64,000 bases of DNA, from assembly GCA_045837725.1 (NCBI GenBank), contig JBEWZL010000132.1:62001-126000 (forward strand). Direction: 5' to 3'. Under the pieces are notes generated by a model that ran no database searches, had not been told where the DNA came from, and saw only the letters and a list, made by a program, of their open reading frames with translations. This DNA comes from Vermamoeba vermiformis. Lineage: Eukaryota. Position numbers and translations under genes: made by a program. Position 1 is the first letter of the stretch, and the number at the start of each line of letters is the position of its first letter. This document shows, piece after piece, positions 1 to 58,978 of this stretch.

Positions 1-1866
1 ACGTTCCCGAAACAATTTCTCTTCTCTTGCAAGCTGGTATCAAGTTTTGGGTCGTGGTAAGTTCAACAAAATATTCCCTTATTTGGCTATAGTTTTAATT
101 CGTGTACTTATGCAGACCGGAGATAAGAAAGAAACAGCTATTAATATCGCTGTATCGTGTCAACTTGTCACCGAGCAACATTTACTAAAAGTGATTGCGA
201 AGGATGAGAGTGAGATCGGCCAAGCTATTGACACTTTTGATCGTGAGCTTAGTGACCTTGTTATTCAATTACACGGCTCTGAGTGCCTCGAAGAAGATTC
301 AATCCACAAAAAAAATATTTGCAATCAAAAGAAGACCGTACATCTGGACAAAGAGATCCGTATTGGTGCAGTACTCGATGGGCATACGTTAAACTGGGCT
401 CTTAATCACGACTTCAATCACTTTATGAAGCTCATTACGCGGTGCGATTCTGTCATTATTTGTCGTGCGACTCCATTGCAAAAAGAACAAGTAAGATCCG
501 AACATTGCAATAATAATAACCTTTGATCTGTATTAATGATAATCTATTAGGTTGTTAAAGCTACTAAGAAATATTTGCCTCGAAGTCAAACTCTTGCTAT
601 TGGCGACGGAGGAAATGATGTCTCGATGTTGCGTGCGGCGGATGTGGGCATTGGTTTGCCGGGTGAAGAAGGTCGTCAAGCAGCAAGTACGTTATATATA
701 TATTCCTAAATTAATATATAATGGTTATTAATGGCTTTTCGCAAACAGTGGCTGCTGATTTCCAGATTGGTCAGTTCAATCGACTCGCGCGTCTGGTGCT
801 TGTTCGTGGACGATATTTCTATACTGGCATGGCATTTTTCTTGTTCTATTTCTTTTATAGAGTAAGTAGCCGGTACCTATAATACGACAATAACATATCA
901 TACTCATTGGCTATTAATAGAGTTTTGCTTTAATCGTGCCAAGACTGTGGGCCAACGGGTTTGCAGCCTTCTCGGGCATCAACTTTTACCAAGCTTTATT
1001 CGACGGAGGATTCAATTTGCGTAAGTTTGTAGTCTTTAATAGTATAAGACCGGCGAGCTAATACTCTTCTATTAGTTTTCGCGTCCATTCCTATTTTGGT
1101 AGTGACGGCAGGAGAGCGAGACATGGCACCCAAACTTTTGTTGCGATACCCTGAACTCTATAGAGATGTCGCTAATCATCGCTATTTCAATCGCAAGAAG
1201 TTCTCGTATTGGCTCTTACAAGGAATTTATCATGGAACTCTTGTTTGGGCCGTGCCCGTCTTGCTTTTCAGTTCTTCGTACCCGACCTCGCTTGGATCTG
1301 AAGGCGGCGAATGGGTCGTGTGTGCTGTTAGCATGTTCTATTTGGTAGTATTGGTTAACTTACAAGTCGCTCATAGAATATAGTAAGTTCTAACCTTTCC
1401 CTAAAACTCGATCGAGGATCCGAATCTAACTTTTCCTCGCAGTTATTGGACTACCGTGCATCATGCAGTTATCTGGGGCTCAATAGTCTTATGTTTAGCA
1501 TTGACTATCGTATACGCCATTCCATCTTTGAATTCCGAGTATTCTGGCGTAGCAGTCTATTTCCTATCAACTGCAGAATTCTGGCTGGGCCTCCTATTAA
1601 TTGTTGCCCTCGCATTTTTGCCGTCTCATACATTCTGGTACATTGCGCGCAATTACAATCCCTCGCCTATGGACATTGTTCAAGAGATCCAGTTACTCGA
1701 ACACCGTCAACATCACCATGAGCATAAACATCGTCATAGAAGCAATACACCGCCTGCAGTTGAGTTGAAAGCCAATGCGTATCACGTGGACGAAAACAAT
1801 CCGGATCCACCTCACACGCAACGGTCAGTGCACGCTGAAAACAATAGCAATAAAGAACAAAGTTAA
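1..1866 (+). CDS. P4-type ATPase (phospholipid flippase), 3' part, multi-exon
   Basis: Spliced exons give [29 protein letters not shown] and [26 protein letters not shown], followed by C-terminal TM helices; stop at 1866. Confidence 0.93.
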
Positions 1867-35132: not shown

Positions 35133-36593
35133 TTAAAATTTGTAAACATTCACTGAATACAATCGAGTCATGCGCTGCTTCAACGACTCTGCATCAAACT
35201 CTAGTTTAGGCAACGGGCCACTGAGAGAGAGCGTGCGCAATGAGGTCAAAAGTGTCAAAGTGACACCTGTCAAAGTGTCACTTGGCCAGGAGAGGTGCAG
35301 ACACCCTAAATTAGTCAAACTGGTCAGCCGAAGAATTGTACTGTCTGTCACATTGATGCAACTGCTGAGGCCGATCTCTTTGAGTGCTGTCATATGTGAA
35401 ATTTCTTCCAAGAATTTTTCACTGAATAGCCAACGACAATTCAACTTTGTCCAAGGCAAGTGTCTAATGCTAATACTTTCATCAAAGGATAAATAATTAT
35501 AACTCAATTCTTCGAGTACTGTCAACTTTTCAACGTGTAAAATGTTTTTGGGCTGATCTGGGACTCTAATTTTCAAACTTCGTAGATTGGGTAAGCTAGT
35601 AATGCTTGCAAATAGGTCTTCATGACCCTCAAACATTTGTAATCGTGTCAATGCTGTGAATTCTCGGAGAATTTCATAGCTGTTCGGAGTTATACGATCT
35701 AGTTCGAGTACTTGCAGACTACTGCTTAATTGGGTAATGTTATTCAAGTCATGACGGCCTATCACATCCAATGCGGTAAATTTCTTCGAATTTATCAAAT
35801 TTAAAGCTTCATGCCATTGATCGTCATTGTTTTGTTGAGAAAATCTAAAATATTCCAGATTTGTCAGTGCCGTCAAAAACTGCAGAGCAGCAGGGCCGTC
35901 AATACAACCCTTGATTTGCATACTTAATATTCTTAATTTTGTTAATGTCGCTAATGACTGGCTATCGACCGTTGAGCATTCCAAAAACAAGTTTGTTAAG
36001 TTTTTAAATGCCGAGCTATCAATGTCATCTTTCCAAAGCAAATTTAAAGACTCTAAATTAGGCAAGTGAGGGAGTGGTCCGTTAAAGTTGAAGTTGCCCA
36101 AATCTAACTTTTTTAGGTTTGTAAATCTGGTAAAGTAACTTGGATCCAAGGTAGAATTTGGAGTATATAATGACAAATACGTGGTATTAGGAAAGTGGTG
36201 CATAAGTTCGTCAGGTACGTCCACAATCTCTTTCAAATTCGTCAAATTTGTCAACGGATGCAGCTGCTCGATTGGTAGTGGTTTGCGCTTGATTGACAAC
36301 GGCGGCTGAAGGCCATTTAATTTTGTTAATTGAGTCAATTGTCCTAATTCTTCGTGGATTTTTGTCGTTATAGTGAACATTGGGTAAATAAACTCGAGCC
36401 CGATCGGAAACGAATATTTTTTGAGTCTTTTGAGGAGCAGATCCAGCTGTTGATCGGTCGTATAATAGACTGCAAAGTCATCGTATTGTATTATATTGAA
36501 CCATCGCGAGTTTGCAAGCCTCATCCTGCGACGTGAACTGACATCCAGATACGAGCCGATTATAGGCAATAATTCAGACGGTAGAGAGTCCAT
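35133..36593 (-). CDS. F-box + leucine-rich repeat protein (intronless)
   Basis: MDSLPSELLPIIGSYL F-box; many LTxLxxLxL repeats. Confidence 0.88.
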   Translation of the reverse strand: MDSLPSELLPIIGSYLDVSSRRRMRLANSRWFNIIQYDDFAVYYTTDQQLDLLLKRLKKYSFPIGLEFIYPMFTITTKIHEELGQLTQLTKLNGLQPPLSIKRKPLPIEQLHPLTNLTNLKEIVDVPDELMHHFPNTTYLSLYTPNSTLDPSYFTRFTNLKKLDLGNFNFNGPLPHLPNLESLNLLWKDDIDSSAFKNLTNLFLECSTVDSQSLATLTKLRILSMQIKGCIDGPAALQFLTALTNLEYFRFSQQNNDDQWHEALNLINSKKFTALDVIGRHDLNNITQLSSSLQVLELDRITPNSYEILREFTALTRLQMFEGHEDLFASITSLPNLRSLKIRVPDQPKNILHVEKLTVLEELSYNYLSFDESISIRHLPWTKLNCRWLFSEKFLEEISHMTALKEIGLSSCINVTDSTILRLTSLTNLGCLHLSWPSDTLTGVTLTLLTSLRTLSLSGPLPKLEFDAESLKQRMTRLYSVNVYKF

Positions 36594-37270
36594 TAGAATC
36601 TATTAAAATACAAATTAATTTAAGAAATACCTAATTAATTATTATAATTAACTGTTGGTCAGTAATTATTCATAAATAATAGTATTATGCTGCAGATATT
36701 TTTGTTTTGAATCGAATCTTAATGGGCAAATTCGTTCTGGATTCGTGTAATTAATGCCGCAGTATTATTTATCAACTATATTAGGTGTTAATTACCTCTA
36801 TGTGTTTCAGGTCCGGTGATGTTCACTGGTTGGGACATCAAATAAAAACAAACCTCAGTGTATCCCGCTGTATTGATCCCAGCACCAACAACGGCCCAAA
36901 TATATATAAAAATAAACAATAAGAAGGGAATCCAAATGCTATAACACTAAGGAAGCATGTAGATGCAGCCACGCAAACAAGTACGGAAAGAGAGGGCGCT
37001 GGATAATTAATGGTCAGCTAATGTATAGAAATATAAATTGTAACAACGCGGAGGCTGCAGTACTCACGGTAAGCGTTTTTAAATGGTAGCATGTAATTTG
37101 TTTTTCGGATGTCGGTACAATGTAGCGCAAAATTTCATTTAAATTTAAAATAATATAGTACAAGTACAAGTATCAATAACGGCAAAATTAGAATCTAACA
37201 GACAAAGCGGATCGACCAAAAAATTGGCTGTTGCATCTTTTTCTTCGTTACGTGCTCTTAAATATGAAGC

Positions 37271-43769: not shown

Positions 43770-43950
43770 TGGTTGGGTAGGAAAAGGTACGGAGGTGTGG
43801 AGGGTATTTACAGAGGCTAGGGGAATTAAAGTTTATGTGTTATGTGTTATGTGAGGTTTTTTCGGCCGAGAAAATTTCGGCCAGGGCGGGGCCCATCGCC
43901 CTGATTGGCGAGTTCAGCTAAGCTGGGGTCCCGTCCTGATTATGTAGTAT

Positions 43951-46900
43951 TTATTTATATCTTGTTTTAGCCAATATTTCTCGGTCTATCGTTTTCTTCA
44001 GCTCGTCGAAGAAAGTCTTGCATCTGTATCTGTAGATTTTGCGGAAGAATTTTATCTGGGTATGTATTAGTTTAGTACTTAGTTCTATTAAATTTTCTTC
44101 ATCTTCTATAAATTGTTTGAGGTAATTATACGTGTATTTTGGAAGGAAACCGGAAACTCCGGCAATATTATTTATTTCTTCTTTTTCAAATTCTGCCGCG
44201 TCTCTAAAGTTTCTATTCTTTATTCTATACCATCTGCATGGGTCTCCTGGGGGTATTTTATATTTTTCGAGGATGCCGTCTATTTCGTGGTCGAGCTTTC
44301 TTCTAATTGGTTCGTACTCTCTGCACGCTGCGATTATATGTTTGGTATCTTCTGGTTTTTTGCAATGTACGCATTGGTTATTCGTGTATATTGTTTTGAG
44401 TCGGAGATTCTCTCGGTCTGTCCCTTCTTTCCTGATCTTGCGCATCATCTCTACCTTGCCGTTCAGTTGTTTATTCCTTAGTTTGAAAATGAAGTTTACA
44501 TCGTTGTTGGTAAAGTCCTTGTTATGCAGGTAGCTGGTTTTATGCGCTGCTGCTCGGAGTTTTCTGACGTCTTTAAGTTTAACAGTCTCGTGGTGTCTTC
44601 GTTGTTCTTCTAGTTTGATTAGGTTGCTTAGTTTATCCGTTTGTATTGTGTCATCAATTGTAAATATGTATTTTCTGGCGAGTCTTGGCACTACACCAAT
44701 TCTCATTAATTTGAGGCTTTGTTTGGCTAGTTGATCTGCCGCTTCGTTGCCTACGATTATTCTCGAGTAGTTGTCTCCGTATTTATCTTGTAGGGTCTTG
44801 AGTTTTTCTTTGAGTTCTTTTAGCTTTTTGGGGTCTTTTTGTAGTTTATTCATTTTATCGCCGATATGGCTAGGTACGTGTTCGTAGCTTACTCTAATTT
44901 TCTTTTCCGCGATCGTTGCCTTTATCCTGTTGATTACAGCTTCGTATTTTGGTGGTGGTCTTTTCTTTTTATTCGTTAGTACGTGTATCGCGCTCGTGCA
45001 ATCTGTAAAGATTCTGAGGTCTTGGCGTTGATGTGTGTTGATAGCATATTCTATAGCTTCTAGTTCCGACTCGAACGAGTCTTGTATATCGTTGGTTCTG
45101 CGGGCTGTGTTGAGTTTTGAGTTGCGCGTAAAGAAAACACCGAATCCCGCTTTATTTTGTTCTTTGTCCCATGAGCCATCTGTCCATACCCACGTCTCTC
45201 CATCAATCGTTATAAGGTCTTCTTCAGTGGTTTCGGCGTTTATTCTGGTTCTGCTGCGCTCCTCGGCTAGTTCTTTGTCAATGATTTCGTTCTTGATTTG
45301 GCCGTTATCTGTGATTATTCTCCTGACTGCTAGGTATTCTTTATTCGTTAATGGGCTACTGCTGGTTAGGTTTAGATGGAAGCGCGATTTAATTAGTTTG
45401 GTTTGAGTGGAAATATCTCTGGTGTATTTGATATTCATGTTTCGTAGTTTATCTCGCAGCGGTAACGAGTTAATACTTTGTAATAAGGGGCTGCCGTTTT
45501 CATTGATAGTGATTCCGACCTTAAATCGGTGGCAGCATTTAATTGCATTTATTATAATGTTGTCGTTGGGGTTAATGTTTTGTATTTTGGTTTTCGGTGA
45601 CTCTAGTTTATTGATGTTATCGATATCAACTGCCTTCATTCTGTATTCCAGGATGTCGGATAATATATCATTTCTGTTGAGACCTCTTTCGAATATGAAG
45701 TCTGCGAATGTTCTGTAGTTGAGGTCTTCTACGTTGGGGACGTTCAATCCACCTTCGTCTCTACTTATTGAGAATTGTGCATTGTTGAGGTTTTGTCGTA
45801 TCGGAATCGACCTCTTGAGGCACGTGAATATGCTATCTGATATTTTGTTGAGCGTTTTAGTTGGAAATATTATGTTATGAAATGGGTATTGTATTATTGG
45901 CAGTATTACTCGTGTTATCAGTTCGGCTTTGCAGTTCACCGATAGGTTTTTTGTTCGAATTATGGCTAGTTTATTTAAGAATTTCTTTTGGAAGTGCTCA
46001 AAGGTTTGCGTTAGGTCACCTTCGATATTCATAGGTATGCCGAGGTATTTGTAGTTCTCGTTCGCTTTCAGTGTTTTGATGTTTTTATTGTAGAATTTAA
46101 TCTCTTTTCCTGTCGTTTCATTCGCTGTGAAGGCTGACTTATCGTGGTTAACGAGTATGTTGTAGTACGTCGAGAATTTTTCCAGATCCGCACTCATTTC
46201 TGTTAGCTCTTTGAATGATTGTGCAATTAGTGCAATGTCGTCGGCGTATGCGAGGGTGGGTATTCGTATTGGTTTTTCAACATTGAGTACGTATCCGTCG
46301 TACTTGTTTTCGATATGTTTTAGAATTGGATTAATAAATATTATGAATAGTAGTGGTGAGAGTCCGTCTCCTTGTTTTACTCCTTTTTTGATATCGATCG
46401 GTGCAGACAGCTCTCCGTTTACAATTACCGCTGCGGTATTATCAGTGTACATGTTAATTATTAATTCGATAAAGTTATGGTCCACTTTATAGTATTCCAT
46501 AACCTGTTTAAGTCCCCAATGTTCTACGCTGTCGTAGGCTTTACTAAAATCGATATATTCTAGGTGTAGCTTTTTGGTTGTTTTATTGTCTTCGATGATA
46601 TTTTGTAGTATTGAAATTTGTCTTGCCGTGCTCATATTGCTTCGAAACCCTGCTTGGAATTGCGAAAGTAATTTATTTGTTTCGAAGTACTCTTCGAGGC
46701 GGTCTTTTATAATACTGCTGAAGATTTTATATTCTACCTGGAGTAGGCTAATCGGTCTGTAGTTGCCCGGGTCTCCTTGGTCGCCTCCTTTGTGGATTAA
46801 TGAGATCAGCGATTCTTTCCATTTGGTTGGGATCTGTTTTTGTATTAATATAGCGTTGAATATCTTTTTGTACTCTTTCAGTACGTCTTTTGAGCAGTGT

Positions 46901-48041
46901 TTAAGTATGTCGATCGGTATTTTATCGCTACCTGGTGTTTTATGGTTTGCCATTTTAGCGATTGTCTCTCGAATTTCTCGCAGTGATATCTTACGCATTA
47001 GGTCAAGGTTATATTCGATGTGAATGTCTTTTTCGAGCCATACAGGAGTATCGGTTCTTGGGGGGGTAGACGACGTGAGTGTTGCTTCCCAAAATGAGCG
47101 CACTTGGTTGCGGATGCCTTCTTTGTCTGTTATTGTTACGTTGTTTTGTTTGATGAATGGGATTGTCTTGTTGCTTGTTAGAGTTTCGAAGATTAGTCCG
47201 ATATATGTTTTGAAATTTGTGTCTCGTAGGCTAAGTCGTCGTTCAACTCTTGAATTGATATCATTTGTTTTCATTTGTTTTATCCTCTTATTATATTTTT
47301 TAACCTCTTCGCGTTTTCTTTCTTTGATTTCCTCTGCAGACGCATTCGTGTTGATGTTGCATTTCCCGAGTATCTTTTTTAGTTTCTTTTCTCTCGATGG
47401 CGATGCTAGCATATATATTTTGTGTTTAAGTCGGAGAGCTTTCAGTATTTGATGTATATTTCGTTTGATGTTGTTTAGTTCTGCATCTTGTTTGTACGGT
47501 TCTCGTTTGTTGTTAGATTTGAACTTTTGGAATATTAATTCGTGCCATTCGTTAAGTTTTTCGTTTATTCTGGACATTGGTTCGGTGCCTGTCAAGTGGA
47601 ATCCGCTGCTTTCGTAGAGGGTTTGTAGCTTATTTGGCGTTGATTTTTTATCAAGGTTGTGGGTATCGATTTTTTCTCTCAGTTCTTGGCTTGTCGCGCT
47701 ATCTTTGACTGTTGTAAAGCTGTATTCGAGTATGATTGCGCGGTGATCGGAATGTATTCTGTCTTGTTTCCATATATCGCAGTTGATAATACGTCCTTTT
47801 TTGTTGGTAATGAAATAGTCTATCCTGGATCGTGTTCGATAGATCTCTGGTGACGTTTCGTCTTTGTTTTCTCTTTCGAACGTGAATCCTTTCCGTAATG
47901 GGTAACAATATCGGAAGCAATCGGCGAGAGCGCGTATATCAAAGTTGTTCGTTACCGTTTCGCAGTGGTTTGCATGTTTAGAGGTTTTATTGAATTTCGG
48001 ATCTGATTTTTTAAGGCGGATATTTAGGTCGCCTCCTATTA
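43951..48041 (-). CDS. Retrotransposon polyprotein, 3' part: C-half of APE endonuclease, RT, RNase H, CCHC
   Basis: GGDLN, SRIDY, SDH; KTPGSD, YRPISLL, DFSKAYDSV, GVKQGDGLSP, YADD (46237-46248), YKYLG; TDGS/ELEA/FTDC/HVPSH/GNEAADQLAK; CVHC..H..C; frame open from 48041 to stop. Confidence 0.95.
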
Positions 48042-48117
48042 GGGACGAACTTTTAATGGTTTGAAAAATATCCCATGTTCAAGATGTAAGGTGTACACCT
48101 TACACTACCAAAATAAA
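48042..48117 (+). repeat. Left TIR of MULE-like element
   Basis: GGGACGAACTTTTAATGGTTTGAAAAATATCCC...TGTAAGGTGTACACCTTACAC matches the reverse complement of 54440-54517. Confidence 0.88.
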
Positions 48118-48124
48118 GTATCAT

Positions 48125-50783
48125 TTATTTCAATTGATTTTTTTGATTTCGCTTTGCCACTTGATATACAATCTTTTTCACATATCCCTTGGTATATTTT
48201 TCATCAAAAATGTAATGTTGCAACCAGTACAACAATCCTTGGGATATTCCTTGTCTTTCCTCAGACAGTTTCTTTAAGCCTTCAATACACAGCAGCACAT
48301 CTTCTTCTTTCACCTTTGGGTAGTTTGCCTTGCGGGAGGTAAAATGGGAAAGCTTTAAGTCTTGGAATGTCTTAAATGTTAGCAACTGGGCAAGAGATGT
48401 TCTGGAGTTTAACTGAAAGGGGGTGGTCAATTTCAGGGACAGAAGCAGTTGAAGTTTCAGGTGAGAGTGCTGTTCTGCTTGATTACGCATTTCATTGCTA
48501 TTCAATGGAATTAGAATTGTAACAATGTGATTGGTAGGTACCTGTAGTTATAAAGGAATTGCAAATGGGTTACAACAGCAACCAGAAGTTCAAAAGAGCA
48601 AGAACCACTGTAAAAGGGAGATGATTTCTTCAAGTATTTGTGCCAGTTTTCATTAACTGAAGTGCCCTTTGAATATTCTTTCAATGAAGCTGAATTGAGT
48701 ACAGCATCAAGGTAGCCCGCAGTAGGGTTTAAAAAGTTATTCACTGCCCCAAGTACTTTGGAGGTAATTATTGAAGGATAATTAGCAGCTGTTATAGTGT
48801 CTGAACCACTATTGCAATGTTAGTGTATAGTGTACACCTTACATATTTGACTAACCTTAAAGTGGCTGCTAGATTCTCAATAAATAATTGCATCTGTTCA
48901 TCTCTATCTTGGTGAGCTTTACTGTATTTCTCAAGCCAGACATTCAGCATAGTAGATAACTTTGCACTGTTTGGGTCAGCTGAATTACAGAGCTGTGCGA
49001 AAATGCCACTGAGTTCTTGCTTTGCTGAATAATAGTCTGTACATATTAGATAACATAGTAAGAATTGTATAAGCATACCAGGATGATTGTGTGCCATTAC
49101 GGAGTCAATTCGATGTATTACATGCCAAATATCTTGACAGGTCTTTGGCATAGTTTTGGCAGAGAAAGAGTTTAACCAAGCTGCTTTAACAAAGTTTTGA
49201 TCTGTTGATATCAAAATTTAGGTAAAGTATTAATTTATGAAATGTTCATACCTTTTCTGCTGTCATCAGTAAACACATGTGTGGTTGTGGGTTTGCTGTG
49301 GAGACTCCAAATATCATCAAACTCGTCTTCCATATATTTGCGCTCATCTGATGGAACTAATTTGCACACAAGCACTTGTCCTCTTTCATTGAGAATCGAA
49401 AGCAAAGAAGCCTTAATCTGTATCTGGAGTATAGGTTACACCATACACCGCGGAATTTCTTTAATGAACCTACTCTTTTTTTGTTCATTGTATCCATTGC
49501 TGAGAGAGCTGATGCAATCTTGTATGTATGATCAACTCGGAGCACTGTACCACTCTTTGCAATGATTTCATTATTGTAGTGATTGAAAAACTCTTTTTGC
49601 TTGCTGTACTTGAAAAGGTACAGAGCCTCCAGCATTTGACTATTGATAATGTACTTCTGTTCCAAAGCATCGACAATCACATCCACATCAGTTTCAGCAA
49701 AGACCTGTGTCAGAAACCCCTGCAATTCATTTAAATATTATTAGTGTATAGTGTACACCCTACGCTACATCTCGTTCTGGTACTGTTTCTTACCATTCGT
49801 ATCTTGTGAGACAGGTTTGATATCCAAGTGCCTACAATAGTCTTTGCCAATGCAGAGAAGTTAAAGGAGTGGGATGGAATTGTCATAAAGATATAATCCA
49901 GAAATTTGGTAGTAACAATTGTTCTTTCAAAAGACACCACTTGCGGAGTAATGCTATAGTCTTTGAGATCTGACTGAAGTAAAGAAAATATAATGTAGCT
50001 GTGTGTGCTGCATTGATACTTTTGGAAAGCCAATATAAAAGGACTTTCAGTATCAAAGCACCTTTCTCTGGTATCTTTTCCATAAAGCACAATATGACAT
50101 ACGTCTTTACCCTGAATAAAGTTAGAATTGAAAGTAATATGTTTCATTAGTACCTTATGGGATGGGCATTTGGTAGGCAAGTAGGTCAGCATATTGACTG
50201 GTTGATTTGCCCTCCACAGTTTCAGGTGCTCAACAGGCAAAACCGACTCCACCGTTGCTGCAAAGTGCGAAGAAGATGTAGCATAATGTTTTTCAGGGTA
50301 TTCGGCACTGTTGTGGATAGAGAGCTCTGCCAATTGTGAAACAACGTCTTCGGTGTAAGGAGTACCCTCTACATCATCGGCCGATTCTACATTTTTCTTA
50401 ATTTTTGGGGCTTTTAACTGTTTCTTGACTGGACTAATGACAATGTTGTGTGTTTTAAGCTTCTTCTTTTGTGCTCGCTCTGCTAAGAATGTTTGGTCCT
50501 GCTGCAGAGTTCTGCGTTGTGGCAGTGGATTCACATCTGAGTAAATTGTAAAACCATAATATTATTAGCAAAACAAATACATACCTTGTAAATGCATTTT
50601 AGTGGCTTGATGCTGCAGCAATTCTTTTTTGGAATTTTTTTGGATGTTGCAGATGCATCCTGTTCGGTAATTCCAAAGTCGGCAAACATAGGTTTTCCGA
50701 TGGTTGCCAGATTTACCAAGCACAATATATTGGTAGCTGGTGTACCCCGGTTCCTTGTTTTGTTCGACAATAAGTTGTTCCAT
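48125..50783 (-). CDS. MULE-like DDE transposase, multi-exon, N-terminal zinc-finger-like segment
   Basis: LRVDHTYKIA (D1), VFTDD (D2), QDIWHVIHRI (DxxH), GTSVNENWH (E); the exon joins I checked are in frame via GT-AG introns. Confidence 0.8.
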
Positions 50784-50814
50784 CTGATTTTATCGTTTTT
50801 ACACGAGCACAACA

Positions 50815-53800
50815 ATGCAAACGCGACTGCGTGCAAGAGCAACAAACCAAAACAAAAACAATAACAATAATTCCCTTTCCAAAAAAAGGGCACGAGACGA
50901 GAGTGAGATTGAGCAGATCGAGATCGCTAGCGAACAAGCCACTAGCAACAAACGGCAGAAAACAACAAAATCAAGTAAGTAATAATTTTGGTTGTAATTT
51001 TTTAATGCGGGTTTAAATAACGGTTTATTTTTTTGATTTTTCTCCCGCGCAAATTAATTTCTTTTTGTTGATTAAAAAACGGTCTGATCCAGAACACAGC
51101 AAGCACAGCAAACAGTGCTTCCCAAGTGGCTGAACGCGCTCCCCAAAACCCCGATATTGCAGGCGAACCCGGTAAGTGTAAATCTGATCACGTTAATTTT
51201 TAATACCCGAATCTAGGCAACACAGCTAACTCAACGCGCACCAACACTACAAATAGGGGTGCACAAGAACGCGAACGCGTTCCCCACGACCGCGATACTG
51301 CTGGCGAACCCGGTAAGTGTAAATCTGATCAGATTGAATTTTTTCTAACCGAATCTGGTCAACACAGCTAACTCAACGCGCAGTGACACTACGAATAGTG
51401 TTACACAACACCGCGAACGCGTTCCTGAAGACAGTGCTGGTGCAGGCGAACCCGGTAAGAGTAAATCTGATCAACTTAATTTTTATTGACTGAATCTGGT
51501 CAATACAGCTAACTTAACGCACAGCAACACTACAAATAGTGCTGCACAAGACCGCGAACACGTTCTGGAAGACCGCGATAGTGCTGGCGAACCCGGTAAG
51601 TGTAAATCTGATCGGATTGAATTTTTTCTAAGCGAATCTGGTCAACACAGCTTACTTAACGCGCACCAACAGTACAAATAGGGGTGCACAAGAACGCGAA
51701 CGCGTTCCCCACGACCGCGATACTGCTGGCGAACCCGGTAAGTGTAAATCTGATCAGATTGAGTTTTTCCTGACCTGAATCCAGCAACCACCACTGGTGT
51801 AAACACTGCTGCTGCTGGTATTATCGCCGCCAGCGAGTATACGCATGGGAGCAATGCTAGCCAGTGCATAAATCAGCCAGGTAAGACGTTTTTTTACTGT
51901 TTAAAAGTTCGTAGCTGATGTCACTAACCGATCGCGAATCCAGTTTCGACCGAACCAATGCCCACAAATGGTAGCAGTAGTCTATCAGATACTAATACGC
52001 GTGCTCCCGACAATTGCTATGGTGGTAGCGAAGCAGGTAAGTGTAAATCTGATCAACCTAATTTTTAATTAACCGAATCTGGTCAACACAGCTAACTCTA
52101 CGCCCAGTAACAGTACGAACACTGTTGTACAACAACGCGAACGCATTCCCGAAGACCGTGATAGTGCTGGCAAAGCAGGTAAGTCTAAATCTGATCAGCT
52201 TAATTTTTTGTAACCTGAATCTAGGCAACACTACCAATTCAATGTCCTCAAACATTGCGAATAGTGTTGCACAAGGCCGCGAACGCATTGCTGAAGACCG
52301 CGACATTGCTGGCAAAGCAGGTAAGTGCAAATCAGATCAGCTTAATTTTTTCTAACCTGAATCTAGGCAACACTGCCAACCCAATGCCCCCAAACACTAC
52401 GAATAGTGTTGTGCAAGACCGCGAACGCGTTCCTGAAGACCGCGATGGTGCTGGCACACCAGGTAAGCCAAAAGTTACTTGTAAAATACTTTGATCTAAC
52501 GTCAAATCCAGGCACAGCTGACACCAGTGCTTCCCAAGTGCACGAACTCATCCCCAATGCCCGCAATAATGATGCTATTGACAATGAACAAGCTCGTGAC
52601 ATTAGACAGCCCACTAGTAAGCCCAATGAGCAAGGTAAGTTGAACTGCCGATCTATGGACAACTTTTGAAATGTATCATTGACAATTATACGATTACAGT
52701 TAATACCGCGGCAGTACAGAACAACACCAACGAGCACACAGATCGTCAACAGGGGGTAGCAATAGCAGGTAAGTTTTTGTGTAAGGTGTACACTGTACAC
52801 CAATGCTGATTGGCTTGCAGGGGCAGCACCGGACTCTCTTGCTGCAAACTACAGTGACAGACCACGTAGAAACCGAACACTTAGACGTGGTGTGTGAAGG
52901 CAAAAACGTTGTATTACAGGATACTAATTCTTTTTCCCTGTTACATAGCTGTAGACACTGCTAGTGACGAGTCCTCAGAATCCAGCTCTAACAGCAATGT
53001 ACAGCAGGTAATTGAAGTTGGCGAAGATAATGAACAAGGGGACTTGCTAAAAGGTAATTCGTATCGGTAACCGGTGTACTCCTTACACCCTTTTATTTAG
53101 TTGTTGGGCAAACAAAAGAAAGCAGCGCAGATCAGTATGCTGCTGTTGATAATATTGTTGCTGTAAACAAAAACGATATTGTGGCAGTGTTGGGAGAAGA
53201 CAACGAAATTTGGTTTGCGAAAGTTGTCAAAGCCCCAAGAGCCAAGAACAACTTGGCAAAACTTACTGTTTCTTGGTATCAGTGTGAAGCACGGACGAGT
53301 TCGAACGCACTGTTAATCTCTCCAGAACAAAACCAGTCCAGCATAGAATTGGGGGCTATTTTGGATAAAGTTGCTTTCACAAAAATGCCTGGCAAGCAAC
53401 TTTGCATTGACAATTCAGAGTATCAGCGTGTTCAAGTTATTGGTACGTAATCAATTCCCTTCTAGCACTTGACCAATTACTGACCTTAATCTCAATACAG
53501 CAACAAAAATTACTGAGCAGCCAGACTCATCTGCAAAAACAAAACAAAGCCCGAAAAAGACTTCGAAAAAGAACAAGAACAAGGCAAAAAAGAAGAAGAG
53601 CAAAAAGAAAAACGCAAAAACATCCGCTGCATCGTAAGTGTACAGTGTACCCTTTACACCAATGTGTAACTTACTTTACACAGAGCTGCAATTGTTGAAG
53701 AAGATAGTGAGCCTGGCGCCAACATGCAAAACAACGCCAATGTTTCTAAAGTGCCACAAACTGCAGATGTTGATATGGGTGAGGTTGGTCCTGATGATGC

Positions 53801-54412
53801 TTCTGTTTCTTTTAGTTCTGCTGAGGAGGATGCCAAACACCAGTTTATGCACGAAACTGACGTTACTGTGGCATCGATTTATGATGTTAATGCTGATTCT
53901 TGTAAGTTTCTCTTCATATTTTTATGGATCTAATCTTTTTTTTGTTGTAGGGGATGTTAAGCTCGCCAAGTTTTCAAAATGGCTTTTGCAATATGGTATA
54001 TTCAACAAAGATTATATGGACAATGGCAAAACGTCTGGTGGCTCAACAGCACTGCACTTATATTTTTTTTACCGTATGTACAGTGTACACCGCACACAAC
54101 TGTCACTCACTACTTTTAGTGTTATCTGCCTTCAGGGACCACGTACTTCCCACTCCTGCTGAAAAGCGTGCTACTTTGCTTTCTGCAGGTATTACAGAAG
54201 ACAATCATAAGCACTACACTCTACTGTGCCACGACATGACACTTGAAGGAAATCCTCTGGTGCACCGCCCCACTGCCTTTACAAAGAAGACTATTACTTC
54301 TGTTCATCGCTGGTTAGTGCAGTACTCATTGATCAGAATTTCTCATGAGCCTGGTGCCAAAAGAAATAGGGTGTTTGTATGTATACCACCTTTGCGTCCG
54401 ATTTGGCAATAA
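50815..54412 (+). CDS. Transposon accessory protein: NLS, tandem 32-aa repeats, BAH-like domain, Lys-rich tract, C-terminal globular domain
   Basis: MQTRLRAR..KKRARD..KRQK first exon; NDIVAVLGEDNEIWFAKVVK..LTVSWY; KKNKNKAKKKKSKKK; final exon ends CIPPLRPIWQ* just before the TIR. Confidence 0.7.
51093..52510 (+). repeat. Tandem array of about 10 x 142-bp exon+intron units
   Basis: GTAAG(TGTAAATCTGATC)-type donors at 51172, 51313, 51455, 51596, 51738, 51881, 52037, 52179, 52321 and 52463. Confidence 0.9.
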
Positions 54413-54439
54413 AACCTGTTTTACGTTTATTTGGTGCAA

Positions 54440-54515
54440 ATTTTTTATTGTTGGTGTCAGGTGTACACTGTACACCACGAAAACGGGATATTTCTCAAAT
54501 CGTTAAAAGTTCCCC
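54440..54515 (-). repeat. Right TIR of MULE-like element
   Basis: Reverse complement reads GGGGAACTTTTAACGATTTGAGAAATATCCC...TGTACAGTGTACACCTGACACC. Confidence 0.88.
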
Positions 54516-57500
54516 CCTCCTATTATTATATGAGAGTTTGTATTTCTGTCGATAATTTTATCGATCTTTTTAAGAAAGCGTTCGTAGAATGCTTTCTTTT
54601 CGGTTTTATTTGACGTTGCCGGACCGTAAACATTTACTATTGCAAGCGTCTCTTTATTTACTTCAATGATCAAGATTATGAAACGCTTGTATTTATCTTT
54701 GATGATCTCTTTAATAAATGGTTTCCATTTTACATTGAAAGCAATTGCGATCCCGTGTTTACCATTTTTTGGCGGGTTGATCCAGTTGATGCGGTCTTCT
54801 TTCTCGGTTTCGTTTATGGTAGTATCATTCATAATCTTTTTTATTAGTTTTTCTTTTCTCTCTTGGACGATGTCTTTCGTAGTGCGATTGTTCCACTCAA
54901 TTGCAACTTCATTGTGTATTTGTTTTCTACACAGGTAGTCTTCGGCAGTAATTTTCGTTTCTTGAATGAGATAAAAATCAATTTCATTGTTCCTTATAGC
55001 TTCGACGATATCTTGTAGTTTGTCTTCGGCACCTCCGTTGATATTTTTCGAAATTAGTCTAATATTATGTTTATGATCTTCAGGGAAATACCACGCATCT
55101 TCTTTTTCGTCCTTATCATCGTAGTCATGCGGTAGCAGTTCAATTTCGCTGTCATTTTCCGGATGTGACCATTGGATCTGAAACTTAAACGGGCTTTTTT
55201 CTTCCATAATTCTGCCTTCGTAGTATTGATCACTGAATTTTATTTTCACTTGTTTACCAAGCCATGTTTTTGTGTCGGGATTGGGATAGGATATTTGCGG
55301 ATCGCCTCCGATTAAGCCAATCTCGGCTTTTAAACAGACTTGGTTGTTAGTGATATCTATGGTGCTATTCATATTAGTTATCATCTTACCATCTTTGAAT
55401 AATTTAATGCATTCCGGTGGTAAGTTAATTCTTTTTGAGCATTCATTACAGATCTCCTGTATCGCGATCTTTGTGTAATGCGTTTTAATATTAATCTCCT
55501 CGTTGTCAAGTGCTACTTTAATATTATTTCCAATTTTTTCGCTACTTTGTTTAGGGTTCTCGGCGCGTTGGGGCTTTGTCTGCTGGTTTCGAGATGGATC
55601 TTTAAGTTTTGGTCGTAATTTTGGTTTTATTTGTGAGTGGTATATTGTCGGTATTATAATAGTGTTTTTCGATAGTGTTATAAGTATATATAATACCTTT
55701 AGACTCAGTCGTCTATAATTTTTTTTGGATCGTGGTTTAACAATTGTGATAATTAATATGCAATTTATTTCGTTTATAAATGTTATTATTAAAGTGATAC
55801 ATGCGGTGAATAAGATTATAATTATTAATATTTTAAGTGTCGAGGTGTGTTCGTTTTCATTTTCTCTTCTCGGCGATCTTTCGTGCAATCTAAATAGTTC
55901 TATAATTAGCGTACACACTATTACTATTTGGTATGTCTTATTTACCGATTCAGCGTATTCTCTTGGTGTGAAAATATCGAAAATGTGGCCACGGGTGAAT
56001 CCGATCTTTCTGTGGAAACGTTTGATTGTCGCGACGTCCATCTCACTGTCACAGTGTACTTGTACGTACTCTCCTTTGCGTAGGCCGTCCGATTTTGGTA
56101 TATATACTCGTACTACTTGCGTTTTTGTCTTCGAGATTTGGCCTTCTAAGAATATTTTCAATTTGCTTGCTTTGATGTTGTATGCTAATTTTGGTGGAAT
56201 TGGGCCCATCCATAACGTTAGATTTTTGGGATGACTGATCTCGAGTGAGTATTTTGTGCCGTTGATGATGATCGATGTACCGTTGGTTGGTATTATCTTA
56301 TCAAGTTGTTGTTCGTCTGCATCGAACACAATTAAGCACTTCTCTCTTGTAGCGTTGAAATCGTCGAGAAACCATTTGAAATACGGTTTGGTGGGGAGCT
56401 TAGTTTGAACTTGTTGCTGTACTTCGTTTCTATGTCCTAATGGTACTGATATAATAATCGCTGCTCGATCAAGGACTATCGCTTCTCCTCTTGGTGGTTC
56501 TGTGATAATTGTATGTCCAATCGGGATAAGAGATCTGATCTCAGTTCTCGCTTGTTCGGAGAAGGCACACCAGTAGGTAGTTTTGATATTGTTCATAAGG
56601 ACTGTGACGCTGCGACTTATGTCGATTTTGTTTTCGATGTTGCGGATTCTTGAGTTGATCGTGGTTAGTTGGGACTGTGAGATTTGTTGAGCTCCGATCC
56701 AGAAATCATTGTCATCATCTCCGATTGAGAGGAAGTCAAGTAATGTTTGTTCTTCCATGTCGATGTCGTTATCGTTCGTTGTTTTTTCGGTTATTCCATT
56801 CGTGTTGTTTTCTAGTTGGGATCCGTTGTTGGGCAGATGCGTAGTTAAAGGAGGCTTAGTAGTGTTATTGTTGTTGTTGATAACTTCTTGGTTGGTTTGT
56901 TCAGTATATTGTGCGTTGTGTTCTTTTGGTTCGTTGCTTGTTACTTCGATCTCTTGATCGGGTGCATCGAGTGTCTGGATGACGTTGTTGTTGTTGTTTG
57001 GAGCTCCTATGTTGTTTTCATGGTCATTATAGAAGTTCATTATTTCTGAAACGATATTGGTTGTCTCTTCGACTGATGCGTCTTCGATCTCATCGTGGAT
57101 GTTTCCTCCTTCCGTTGATGGTGTTGTGAATTGGTTTACGTTGAGCGCTGCTTTAAACCGTTTATTGGGAGATGAGCAATTTGAGCTCGGGTTGCTTCTT
57201 TTGCTCATTAGTACAGTTTGAGAATAAATTAGATTTAAGATCAGCTTACTATTTATATTTTTTTGTTCACCTCTCTTGTGATTAGTTATATCGCCTATGA
57301 GCTTTATTTCTGTGTTTCTTTCTTTTTGTGATGTTGTGTTGGTGTAAGTTTCGATCGATGTTTCAGGATGTGTTCGTGTTCGGGCCGTTTGTGCTTCTAG
57401 AAGGTTTTCCGTTTGTGTTAAGCTGATACGATGGCTTAGTAGTGATCCATTTATTATCGTAGGGGTGATTATAAGACATATTTTGGGTGTAATTTTGGGA

Positions 57501-57820
57501 TCGGGTTCAGATGAGATTGGTTCAGGAAATTTTTGTTTATTTATGTTTAGAGTAATATACATTAGCAGAATAATTAAGAGTGTTTTTAAATTGTATATCG
57601 TGTTTTTCCAGTTCTTTAGGCAGTTTGAAACTGCGGGGCCAATGTTTTTTAGAGTGCTTTGGCGTGCACGGTTATGTTTATATTTGAGTCTTACTTGTAA
57701 TAGTTTTTTGCGTGGAATTTGTGTTTTCGGAATGTTATTTTTTTGGATTTGTTTCGGATTTTGTGGGCTAGTATCATGTGTGGATAATAGGTCTATTAAC
57801 AATATAAATATAGCAAGCAT
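54516..57820 (-). CDS. Retrotransposon polyprotein, 5' part: hydrophobic leader, RRM-like, TM segments, ubiquitin-like, Tudor-like, N-half of APE
   Basis: First in-frame ATG at 57820, 52 nt from the element 5' end; stop-free to IIIGG; SKNING, LIQETK, GIAI and IVNVYGP APE motifs. Confidence 0.85.
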
Positions 57821-58027
57821 TTTTGTTTGTCGTATATTCTCTCCTCTCGTCTCTCTCCTATGCCGGTCATCCGGGGAATTAAAGTTTACTGGGCAGCGCA
57901 GCTTTTGTGTTTGATTCTCCGAAGGATTTTCTCGGAGAAAAAAAGAAATCTCCCGTGGAGGATCTCGCTCGAAAACTATCACTACAAATTTTGATTTACA
58001 CAAATAGAGCATCTGTGTATATCAAGA

Positions 58028-58978
58028 TGAGTAACGGCACGGAAGTAAAGCAATTGCAAGAGCAGATCGCACTTTCAAAACAAGAGAACAAACAGTTACG
58101 AGATACGCTCGAGCAACTCGCGGTAATAATTAAAATGTCTATTATACAATTTTTTAACATATTTTTGCAGGCAAGGAAACTATTGGCAGATTATTCTTTA
58201 GGTATAAACTCAATTCAATGATTTTAATTGAATTATTTTTAAACGTGAATTAATTTGTACCGCCTTACAGTTACAGATAAACGCGCCATTCCTTGCGGAT
58301 TATCAGCTGTACATATTGTAATTCGAAATGGCAAGCAATGTAATTTAGCAACAAAATGTATCGTTCAAGACGATCCAGTGCACGAAGATCTCGTCAAAGT
58401 TGAAGGCCAAAGTAAGAAATTTTATTAATTTAATGCAACAATACTAATTTAAAATATTAGTGTTTCGAGTATGGAGTCCATTTCGCAGCAAATTAGCTGC
58501 AGCCATAATCACCGCTAAAATGAGCAAGTTACCGTTGCATGCGGGCAACAAAATTATGATGATTGGTGGATTGCAAGACACCGCGCATTTGTCAGATATT
58601 GTACAAAAACACGGATTTGTATATTGCGTCAAAAGTGGACTGCCGTTATCAATGCACAAAAATTTATCAAAGAGATCCAACGTAGCGCTAATAGACGAAG
58701 ACAGCCGATATCCAGAACGATATAAAAGTGAAGTGAAGCATCAAATAGACACTATTATAGCCGATATTGGTGATGCGAACGGAATCGATAGTTTTGGCGC
58801 GAATATAAGACAATTTTTGAAAGCCAGTACGAGGTTTTTTGTCGTGATCAGATCGAGCGAAGAACAAAAAATGAAAGAAGAGTTAACGAAGCGACATTAT
58901 TGTAATATAGAAGACGTACTATCATTAACTCCTTTCGATGAGGATTACAAGCTATTTATGGGCACTATTACGAAATAA
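58028..58978 (+). CDS. Divergent fibrillarin-like protein with N-terminal coiled coil and no GAR domain
   Basis: RVWSPFRSKLAAAI, HLSDIV..GFVYCV, EDSRYPERY, IDTIIADI, FLK and LSLTPFD align by eye with the fibrillarin MTase core. Confidence 0.8.

Follow-up and report, generated by a model that had tools for sequence, protein, structure and literature searches.

How does a retrotransposon obtain the right, small amount of its enzymatic protein from an RNA that also encodes another product? This question is a long-standing one for long interspersed nuclear elements (LINEs), which make ORF2 (ORF, open reading frame) from an RNA that also encodes ORF1, and reinitiation, overlapping frames, and 2A skipping are known answers to it. 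It arises again for a LINE carried on the minus strand of a 64,000-nucleotide (nt) stretch of Vermamoeba vermiformis DNA (contig JBEWZL010000132.1, positions 62,001 to 126,000), hereafter called the window and numbered from its first letter. Between the ORF1-like part and the APE-type endonuclease of this element lies a segment predicted to fold as a ubiquitin-like domain (Ubl) that ends in Gly-Gly, followed by a Tudor-like barrel. A preliminary description, made from the letters alone, had proposed that a host protease cuts after the Gly-Gly to release the enzymes, and that the barrel reads chromatin marks for target choice.

Our analysis gives good support to the view that the LINE carries here an accessory module specific to its lineage, in which a strongly diverged Ubl with its Gly-Gly, a Pro-rich linker, a Tudor-like barrel, and an acidic linker precede the APE endonuclease, reverse transcriptase (RT), RNase H, and zinc-binding tail. 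Also well supported is the finding that the first ATG available to this downstream part is that of Met877, inside the Ubl, and that it is in frame with the ORF1-like part only by way of a 56-nt intron, when retained, and a stop-free spacer of 120 codons.

A Gly-Gly-terminated segment ahead of a LINE endonuclease

All peptide strings quoted in the preliminary description are held by one minus-strand ORF (54503-58012; P0001, 1169 aa), and translation of the plus strand over 55085-55528 is broken by many stops. The Ubl occupies 55304..55528 (P0001 residues 829-903, beginning with NNIKVALDNEE at 55528 and ending ...LIGG). Its Gly-Gly (55309-55304) forms residues 902-903, and the coordinates given earlier for a ~75-aa ubiquitin-like segment with Gly-Gly at 55304-55309 match it on the minus strand. 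There follow a Pro-rich linker of 13 residues (55265..55303) that starts Asp-Pro-Gln and has low predicted local distance difference test (pLDDT) values, the Tudor-like SH3-type beta-barrel (55124..55264, residues ~917-963, with W917 at 55264 and the end of FQIQW at 55169), and an acidic linker with pLDDT <50 (55064..55123). The endonuclease-like string IRLISKNING begins at residue 984 (55063). The frame is open through both domains to a degree that exceeds chance. The 75 codons of the Ubl hold no stops, versus 7 and 13 in the other frames (probability of no stops after shuffling, 0.002), and the 80 codons of linker and Tudor-like barrel hold none, versus 2 and 11 (0.004).

As expected of an APE-type LINE, the host element encodes APE and RT within a single ORF, is flanked by a target-site duplication, and ends in 3′ repeats. 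It runs from 43835 to 57872 (minus strand; ~7.6 kb without an inserted DNA transposon), and a target-site duplication of 15 bp, identical in its two copies at 43820-43834 and 57873-57887 (2 matches, 0 expected in 100 shuffles), bears out its earlier assignment to the LINEs. Its 3′ end, as read from the sequence, is a short ACATAAC-type repeat tail. The enzymes that had been placed behind the two domains are found there by Pfam: the N-terminal half of an APE-type endonuclease (54518..55063, minus strand; Exo_endo_phos, E 0.062 over residues 990-1129), an RT (46033-46797, minus strand; RVT_1, 1.2e-37), and an RNase H (44845-45195, minus strand; RNase_H, 2e-12). The APE start also aligns by tblastn to the APE starts of the related loci L001 (7e-11), L004, and L002. 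A Cys/His zinc-binding tail (~44320-44526, minus strand) matches zf-RVT at 0.0014, which is under the cut-off of that model.

The end of P0001 at 54503 is due to the insertion of a DNA transposon, which truncates the endonuclease; the LINE itself continues. The remainder of its ORF (43951..48041, minus strand) comprises the C-terminal half of APE, the RT, the RNase H, and the Cys/His tail, and the ORF P0002 (43951-48078, 1375 aa) carries the RT-RNase H-zinc-binding tail portion. Reading the sequence with the ciliate code (Table 6) makes P0001 only ~60 codons longer, and the transposon accounts for the stop at 54503 instead. At the other end, the ATG at 58012 is outside the LINE, in the flank, and the first in-frame ATG within the LINE is residue 65 (57820). 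Pfam reveals no protease domain in P0001 or P0002, and a search of both proteins for the 2A motif D(V/I)ExNPGP returned 0 instances of NPGP and 0 of NPG.

The Ubl is predicted to adopt a ubiquitin fold

Fold models were made with AlphaFold2 from single sequences, giving whole-model mean pLDDT values of 52.6 for the Ubl and 61.6 for the Tudor-like domain. In the Ubl model, block means reach 64-79 over residues 11-70. The predicted elements are strands 4-8, 11-15, and 20-22, a helix at 23-34, and strands 41-45, 56-58, and 63-70, an order and spacing that we take to be those of the ubiquitin fold. Within the middling scores of a single-sequence model, the beta-beta-alpha-beta-beta-(3-10)-beta order is thus matched in ~75 residues. 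The Gly-Gly corresponds to model residues 74-75, four residues past the last strand, where it closes a flexible tail as it does in modifiers of the ubiquitin type.

Structure searches return ubiquitin-like proteins consistently. An all-against-all search (VIA-wide, 48,161 chains) gave 56 chains at Z >= 5, and 32 of the 50 matches listed have titles naming ubiquitin, a Ubl modifier, or a UBL (Z 5.1-6.8, 58-75 residues aligned over model positions ~2-75). Processed modifiers are represented by FAT10 (Z 6.8), Fubi (5.9), ISG15 (5.4), and SUMO (5.2-5.5). Further matches include the parkin Ubl (6.3), whose residues 1..76 align to model range 2..75, the Rad23 UBL (6.0), UBL4A (5.9), Hub1 (5.8), and the NP95/UHRF1 UBL (5.2); values within 1 Z unit are to be read as ties. 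The Foldseek list consists mostly of ubiquitin, ubiquitin variants, and SUMO (TMt 0.5-0.66; root-mean-square deviation (rmsd) 2.2-3.4 over 55-77 columns). At the level of sequence, PDB searches gave a faint hit to a redesigned ubiquitin (E 0.12, and 0.041 by phmmer) through a stretch that covers the helix and '...PPE.IKL...GK', presumably the hallmark ubiquitin motif. The ESM Atlas yielded for the whole 155 residues one unnamed cluster at 0.88, which serves as a lead only.

Several results count against this assignment. No Foldseek match for the Ubl reaches E <= 0.001 and every Z value is below 8, the marks that the tools themselves set for significance (a lower Z can reflect a common arrangement); no Pfam family reaches its cut-off, and the ubiquitin model gives no match at E <= 10; and identity to ubiquitin entries in the Foldseek list is only ~9-27%. 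The weight for the predicted fold is carried by the consistency of the lists and by coverage of the full domain, not by any single score. On this footing, the ubiquitin fold of residues 829-903 is very probably real, and the beta-grasp prediction that the preliminary description named as a check on its proposal came out in its favor. At this low identity, the Ubl does not represent recently acquired host ubiquitin, unlike the pestivirus case discussed below. Matches to anaphylatoxin (PF01821, E 0.099; C5a chains, E 0.028) and to deiodinase involve short Cys-containing stretches and are at odds with the fold models, and we set them aside.

What might such a domain do at this position? If it resembles a processed modifier, its Gly-Gly could be a site of cleavage by a host enzyme. 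A different explanation is nearly as likely: the Ubl could be permanent and uncleaved, forming together with the barrel an N-terminal docking module of the ORF2 protein in which the Gly-Gly is a leftover. Its ligands would be a methyl mark and a partner from the host, be it the proteasome, a segregase, an E2, or a chromatin factor; UHRF1, Rad23, and parkin offer comparisons. The structure searches are compatible with this arrangement, as the integral UBLs of parkin, Rad23, UBL4A, and NP95/UHRF1 score like the processed modifiers. The Gly-Gly itself fits it poorly, standing exactly at the end of the fold and before a flexible linker, when integral UBLs usually are without a terminal Gly-Gly.

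A Tudor-like barrel follows the Ubl

The second domain was folded alone (55049-55303) and shows block-mean pLDDT values of 67-79 over residues 11-60. The model is a small barrel of four strands (18-23, 26-37, 40-45, and 51-55) with a short helical turn. Tudor entries account for 29 of the 42 Foldseek matches listed (53BP1, Polycomblike, PHF1/19/20, TDRD3, and MTF2), all at E >= 0.76. In the VIA comparison, repeat 3 of Spindlin1 is best (Z 4.5-4.9; rmsd 1.6-2.1 over 44-50 residues), with the Tudors of SETDB1, PHF1, PHF19, and RDM15 and the KOW5 domain of Spt5 coming next. The wide search produced the same mix, none at Z >= 5, with KOW, PWWP, and SH3 barrels within 1 Z unit. The Pfam family PF21743 (PTM_DIR17_Tudor) gives 12.1 bits (E 0.17), where its cut-off is 27.2, and is matched over profile positions 1-19 of 48 only; no Tudor-type Pfam profile scores above its cut-off for the barrel. 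A language-model atlas returned mostly Tudor-type clusters at 0.81-0.86, again as leads only.

These four individually weak lines concur, and a Tudor-like SH3-type barrel is more probable than not. Of the earlier claim that a Tudor-like domain follows the Gly-Gly, the small beta-barrel with Tudor and other royal-family structures as its nearest neighbors stands, and the low scores, with no Pfam cut-off reached, qualify it: the domain appears Tudor-like by fold, a description that stops short of membership in the Tudor family. Strands 1-3 carry a Phe, a Tyr-Tyr pair, and a Trp at what we take to be the positions where cage residues sit in 53BP1 and PHF1. That the barrel reads a chromatin mark is less probable than not.

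The order of the two domains recalls UHRF1, in which a UBL precedes a tandem Tudor domain, and this order favors the docking explanation. To our knowledge, the UBL of UHRF1 is not a processing site. The predicted Ubl and Tudor-like barrel of the LINE protein come in the order in which UHRF1, a protein directed to chromatin, carries its UBL and Tudor barrels, and the UHRF1 (NP95) UBL is among the structural matches of the Ubl (Z 5.2). Unlike UHRF1, the LINE has a single barrel, no PHD, SRA, or RING domain, and no detected sequence similarity to that protein. The tandem Tudor domain of UHRF1 is described in abstracts of the literature on it.

Introns separate two frames that a retained intron joins

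Public sequencing runs were compared with the window over 54400-58200. One (X1) is marked 'DNA?' and has a longest contig of 41 kb, two (X8 and X9) are marked 'RNA?', and a further one (X20) consists of raw RNA reads under the same species label, with ~46% of the run covered. Contigs of the first three contain joints at three introns of the LINE, all on the minus strand. Intron A (57423..57694, 272 nt, GTAAGA...TACTAAG...CAG) lies in the 5′ part of the element and its joint is seen in one contig of X8. Intron B (57195..57249, 55 nt, GTAAGC...TACTAAT...AAG) is represented by joints in one contig each of X8 and X9, and intron C (55890..55945, 56 nt, GTAAAT...GCTAAT...TTTAG) by the joint 55889>55946 in one contig each of X1 and X8. 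The joint of intron C ends CT..AC on the plus strand, and the X1 depth there is 659. All three introns have GT..AG ends, GTAAG or GTAAA donors, and CTAAY branch sites near the acceptor, and the LINE contains three real spliceosomal introns. Introns A and B removed together (327 nt) leave the frame unchanged. In the spliced RNA, translation from the first ATG of the LINE (residue 65) would meet a stop in exon 2 and yield a short upstream ORF.

The ORF1-like coding exon (55946..57194, minus strand) encodes an Asn-rich low-complexity N-terminus and then a folded-looking C-terminal part, which may resemble an RNA recognition motif (RRM) domain as judged by eye; no Pfam families were found for 55529-56701. 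The span 55946-57211, which includes the last 17 nt of intron B, comprises 422 codons with 0 stops. Intron C is located between this ORF1-like part and the spacer that leads to the Ubl, and it contains no in-frame stop. Since its 56 nt do not make up whole codons, splicing it out changes the reading frame of the sequence downstream. In the RNA spliced at intron C, ORF1 goes on for 10 codons to a TGA at 55859-55857, inside the spacer. The element is therefore a single-ORF LINE, as first described, only in its genomic or unspliced form, since splicing of intron C separates the frames of the ORF1-like part and the Ubl. The ORF1-Ubl-Tudor-APE polyprotein is thus one of two expression forms, and perhaps the minor one.

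The spacer (55529..55889, minus strand) is an AT-rich run of 120 codons with no ATG in the Ubl frame. Read as protein, it holds a very hydrophobic stretch (mean of 2.75 in a 19-residue window) followed by a basic Pro/Lys/Gln-rich run. It has 0 stops, versus 14 and 7 in the other frames, and 0 of 500 shuffled sequences are stop-free. Intron C and spacer together (139 codons) likewise have 0 stops, versus 20 and 9, with a shuffle mean of 10.3 and 0 of 5000 shuffles stop-free. The spacer and the retained intron are kept free of stops. Two other routes into the downstream frame were considered and rejected. A +1 frameshift in RNA spliced at intron C would find the ORF2 frame free of stops over the 56 codons that precede the junction, a run for which the stop densities give a P of ~0.05; this is not compelling. 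An ATG overlapping the stop of spliced ORF1 is in the third frame and opens 11 codons only.

No Met occurs in the Ubl frame between residues 658 and 877, which raises the prospect that ORF2 starts at Met877 or later, so that a whole ubiquitin fold is never made and only Tudor-APE with a short leader matters. We consider this the least probable of the explanations. The ORF2 frame of the spliced RNA indeed has no ATG upstream of residue 877, and both contigs that cross intron C are spliced. Yet the frame is open for 48 Ubl codons and a further 139 codons upstream of that Met, and strands 1-3 and the helix of the well-predicted fold come from the part that would be left out. Moreover, mammalian LINE ORF2s are known to be translated without an AUG of their own.

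The X1 data bear on the history of the element. One X1 contig spans the region without intron C, keeps introns A and B, and shows 4 listed differences in 2916 nt relative to the window. The depth falls from 659 to 483, as a gap of 34 of 127 positions gives, and we infer from this dip that no X1 contig covers the 56 nt of intron C. A genomic copy made from RNA spliced at intron C therefore probably exists. At 57814-57967, X1 has a contig with the 5′ junction of the LINE (depth 348) alongside one that diverges before 57902 (depth 154). The sample behind X1 may thus be heterozygous or polymorphic for the LINE insertion.

A proposed route to the release of the enzymatic protein

A need for a release device is suggested by what the element contains and lacks: no Met between residues 658 and 877, a stop-free intron C and spacer, a hydrophobic window of 2.75, no 2A motif, and no protease domain. 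We propose that ribosomes reach the enzymatic part through retained intron C and the spacer, or by starting unconventionally or shifting frame ahead of the Ubl, and that the resulting product would bear a useless hydrophobic N-terminal extension. The Ubl would act like the ubiquitin moiety of natural ubiquitin-fusion genes, such that a host deubiquitinase (DUB) or Ubl-specific protease would cut after the Gly-Gly to yield ORF1-spacer-Ubl and a Tudor-APE-RT-RNase H protein beginning at Asp904. The residue after the Gly-Gly is Asp and not Pro; ubiquitin-Pro fusions are poorly cleaved. Splicing of intron C would produce an ORF1-only mRNA instead. Splicing and cleavage would between them fix how much ORF1 is made relative to ORF2, a role that frameshifting has for Gag and Gag-Pol. 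The Tudor-like barrel would most likely tether the endonuclease to a methylated histone or another chromatin protein, thereby biasing target choice.

Cleavage by a host protease after the Gly-Gly is the best mechanism we can offer, and we put it forward tentatively. The complete scheme is unlikely to be right in every part. It would amount to a two-protein control in which spliced RNA gives ORF1 only and intron-retaining RNA gives a polyprotein cut at a diverged Ubl, freeing a Tudor-tethered endonuclease and RT and leaving behind ORF1-spacer-Ubl with an exposed Gly-Gly. Such two-protein control is not known to have been described for LINEs.

A number of observations weigh against release by cleavage. 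The tail of the Ubl is without the two Arg of LRLRGG, the tail of ubiquitin in which many ubiquitin-specific DUBs read the Arg residues, and a dedicated protease would therefore be needed. Under the Arg/N-degron rule, an N-terminal Asp makes for a short-lived protein. Both contigs across intron C (from X1 and X8) are spliced, and the fusion may be rare. Within the LINE, X8 and X9 cover only 55803-57839, with nothing over the Ubl or APE (their other pieces lie in the flank beyond 58048), and X20 has a depth of 0 over 54908-55415. The window copy is split by a transposon, and the mechanism rests on one low-copy family.

Comparisons with other sequences add to this list. For the Ubl-Tudor module there are 0 matches at E <= 0.001 among 1.84 billion representative proteins. 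Word-indexed searches with residues 800-1169 brought up no homologue of the module among 1284 'longer' or 3337 'near' candidates. A metagenome scan found patterns of the module in 459 stretches, with 0 confirmed, and when 80 related loci, kept from 133 related metagenome stretches that had been confirmed, were compared with the module by tblastn, no match was better than E 2.6. DNA ahead of APE was read in the three closest RT relatives, and two of them, L001 and L002, have no Ubl or Tudor there.

The enzymatic half is by contrast well connected: for P0002, 353 of 8000 candidates scored match at E <= 1e-5. The nearest proteins, P0003 (5e-84) and P0004 (8e-81), both start at the endonuclease, and the closest metagenome locus is L001 (3e-105). 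The studied LINE and these relatives (L001, L002, L004, P0003, and P0004) have in common the series APE-RT-RNase H-Cys/His tail, at 25-29% identity to P0002, and differ in that the Ubl-Tudor segment ahead of APE, compared with L001 and L002, is found only in the LINE studied. L004/P0003 has only ~190 nt of open frame ahead of APE, too little to judge the module. In L001 (45-3020), a single open frame of 992 codons takes in an ORF1-like part, a long spacer that is AT-rich and hydrophobic, and the beginning of APE. This one-frame layout is shared, the module is a lineage-specific addition, and the kept-open spacer may be a trait of this LINE group. The X1 copy, the only other one seen, shows no listed difference at 55304-55309 but is ~99.9% identical overall and hence uninformative on conservation of the Gly-Gly.

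The same facts raise the question of whether the module has any role. It could be a host-gene fragment, captured recently or in decay and acquired for example by template switching; the family would then be a dead end in this genome and its open frame a leftover. L001 and L002, the closest relatives that can be read upstream of APE, are without it; the one copy in the window is split by a transposon; the main X1 copy is without intron C, so that its ORF1 and ORF2 are out of frame; and RNA reads barely touch the LINE. Even so, we find inertness improbable. Single-sequence models still show a predicted fold for each of the two domains, and the module with its preceding 139 codons is stop-free where ~21 stops in total would be expected. 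The 4 listed differences in 2916 nt between the window and X1 copies indicate a family that is young, not decayed, and no host-type donor protein appears among the 1.84 billion representatives.

The docking explanation draws strength from some of these points as well, given that the Ubl sequence is far from ubiquitin and that we can name no host protease for the proposed cut. It provides, however, no means of removing the hydrophobic peptide encoded by the spacer, whose open frame implies that it is translated, and the search of the 1.84 billion representatives revealed no sequence similarity between the module and any UHRF1-like protein.

A DNA transposon within the endonuclease and other features of the window

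The DNA transposon that interrupts the endonuclease, which is not part of the LINE, spans 48042..54517 (6476 bp) and has imperfect terminal inverted repeats. Its arms (48041-48117 and 54442-54518) are 77 nt long and 78% complementary. An 8-bp duplication, TAATAGGA, flanks the insert at 48034-48041 and 54518-54525. The LINE frame runs across the insert into P0002, as the same two codons of the duplication are in frame on both sides. A contig of X1 reads through the empty site (loose end at 54516), and copies without the insertion therefore exist. By its 8-bp target duplication alone the transposon is hAT-like, with terminal inverted repeats of ~60-77 nt. Tandem repeats of 142/283 bp occupy ~51100-52500 within it, and there are eight copies of a 27-nt motif that is itself built on the palindrome GTGTACAC. 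The one ORF of the transposon that was tested (49734-50561) contains no transposase domain.

The window contains a single copy of the LINE. In the flank at its 5′ end (57938-58200), X8 and X9 share a plus-strand GT..AG joint, 58121>58170 (48 nt), and X20 RNA reads map with many differences. A neighboring gene or its paralogue is therefore expressed there. Elsewhere in the window, three host genes are present in pieces with short gaps, at 14219-19289 (minus strand), 31627-33248 (plus strand), and 35133-36599 (minus strand). Among them they carry domains of an alpha-2-macroglobulin (MG2, A2M_BRD, A2M, and bacterial-type MG10), a VIT-VWA protein, and an F-box/LRR protein. Along with the introns of 55-56 nt, these genes are indicative of a microbial eukaryote.

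Relationship to known systems

Polyproteins of cytopathogenic pestiviruses carry ubiquitin insertions, and host DUBs cut after Gly-Gly in these and in the products of ubiquitin-fusion genes. The LINE resembles both in placing a predicted ubiquitin-fold unit with Gly-Gly directly before the protein to be released, an arrangement that needs no element-encoded protease. Whereas the unit in those systems is ubiquitin or nearly so, the Ubl of the LINE is ~9-27% identical and has no ubiquitin Pfam match. The carriers also differ, being a ribosomal-protein gene or an RNA virus in the known cases and a LINE here, and cleavage in the LINE is a proposal.

Introns are known in retroelements from spliced L1 copies (SpIREs) and from the intron of the Ogre element, which has long terminal repeats (LTRs). 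As in those examples, spliceosomal introns are present, genomic copies without an intron probably exist, and splicing decides which ORFs are joined. Unlike SpIREs and Ogre, the present LINE links ORF1 to ORF2 by intron retention and not by splicing, with the retained intron and the spacer free of stops.

The chromodomains on integrases of chromoviruses (Ty3/gypsy) have a role in targeting. They and the Tudor-like barrel are alike as small barrels of royal-family type that are fused to the integration enzyme of a retroelement, where each is presumed to act as a chromatin reader that biases insertion. They differ in that the chromovirus has a chromodomain at the integrase C-terminus in an LTR element, whereas here a Tudor-like barrel with weak fold scores (Z <= 4.9) stands at the APE N-terminus in a non-LTR element. 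An excerpt of one paper lists the chromodomain as an accessory domain of LTR elements (PMC6338049).

A device of the same general kind appears in other LINEs. According to excerpts of two papers, APE-type LINEs with a single ORF can carry 2A 'ribosome-skipping' peptides in their N-terminal region (PMC3708506; PMC3894237), and one of the papers discusses these peptides as an answer to how ORF2 gets made (PMC3894237). As presented in those excerpts, a 2A peptide parts the N-terminal region from the enzymatic protein ahead of APE-RT without a protease of the element's own, as the Ubl is proposed to do. The 2A event, however, is a translational skip at a peptide of 18-30 residues, whereas we propose post- or co-translational proteolysis at a folded domain of 75 residues, in an element without NPGP.

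Open-access papers and preprints searched for a LINE-encoded ubiquitin-like or Tudor domain contained no description of one. What appears new at this locus is an undescribed accessory module and an unusual intron-dependent arrangement of frames on an otherwise ordinary LINE backbone. If our proposal is true, then a Ubl junction cleaved by the host, combined with intron retention, would be a further answer to the problem of ORF2 production. It would also constitute a second natural case, beside the pestiviruses, of a selfish element that uses the ubiquitin-processing machinery as its protease. Likewise, a Tudor-type reader on an APE endonuclease would be the non-LTR counterpart of the chromovirus chromodomains and a handle on target choice. 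Even if the module proves to be inert, the locus documents spliceosomal introns in a LINE and, in all probability, a genomic copy that lost one of them.

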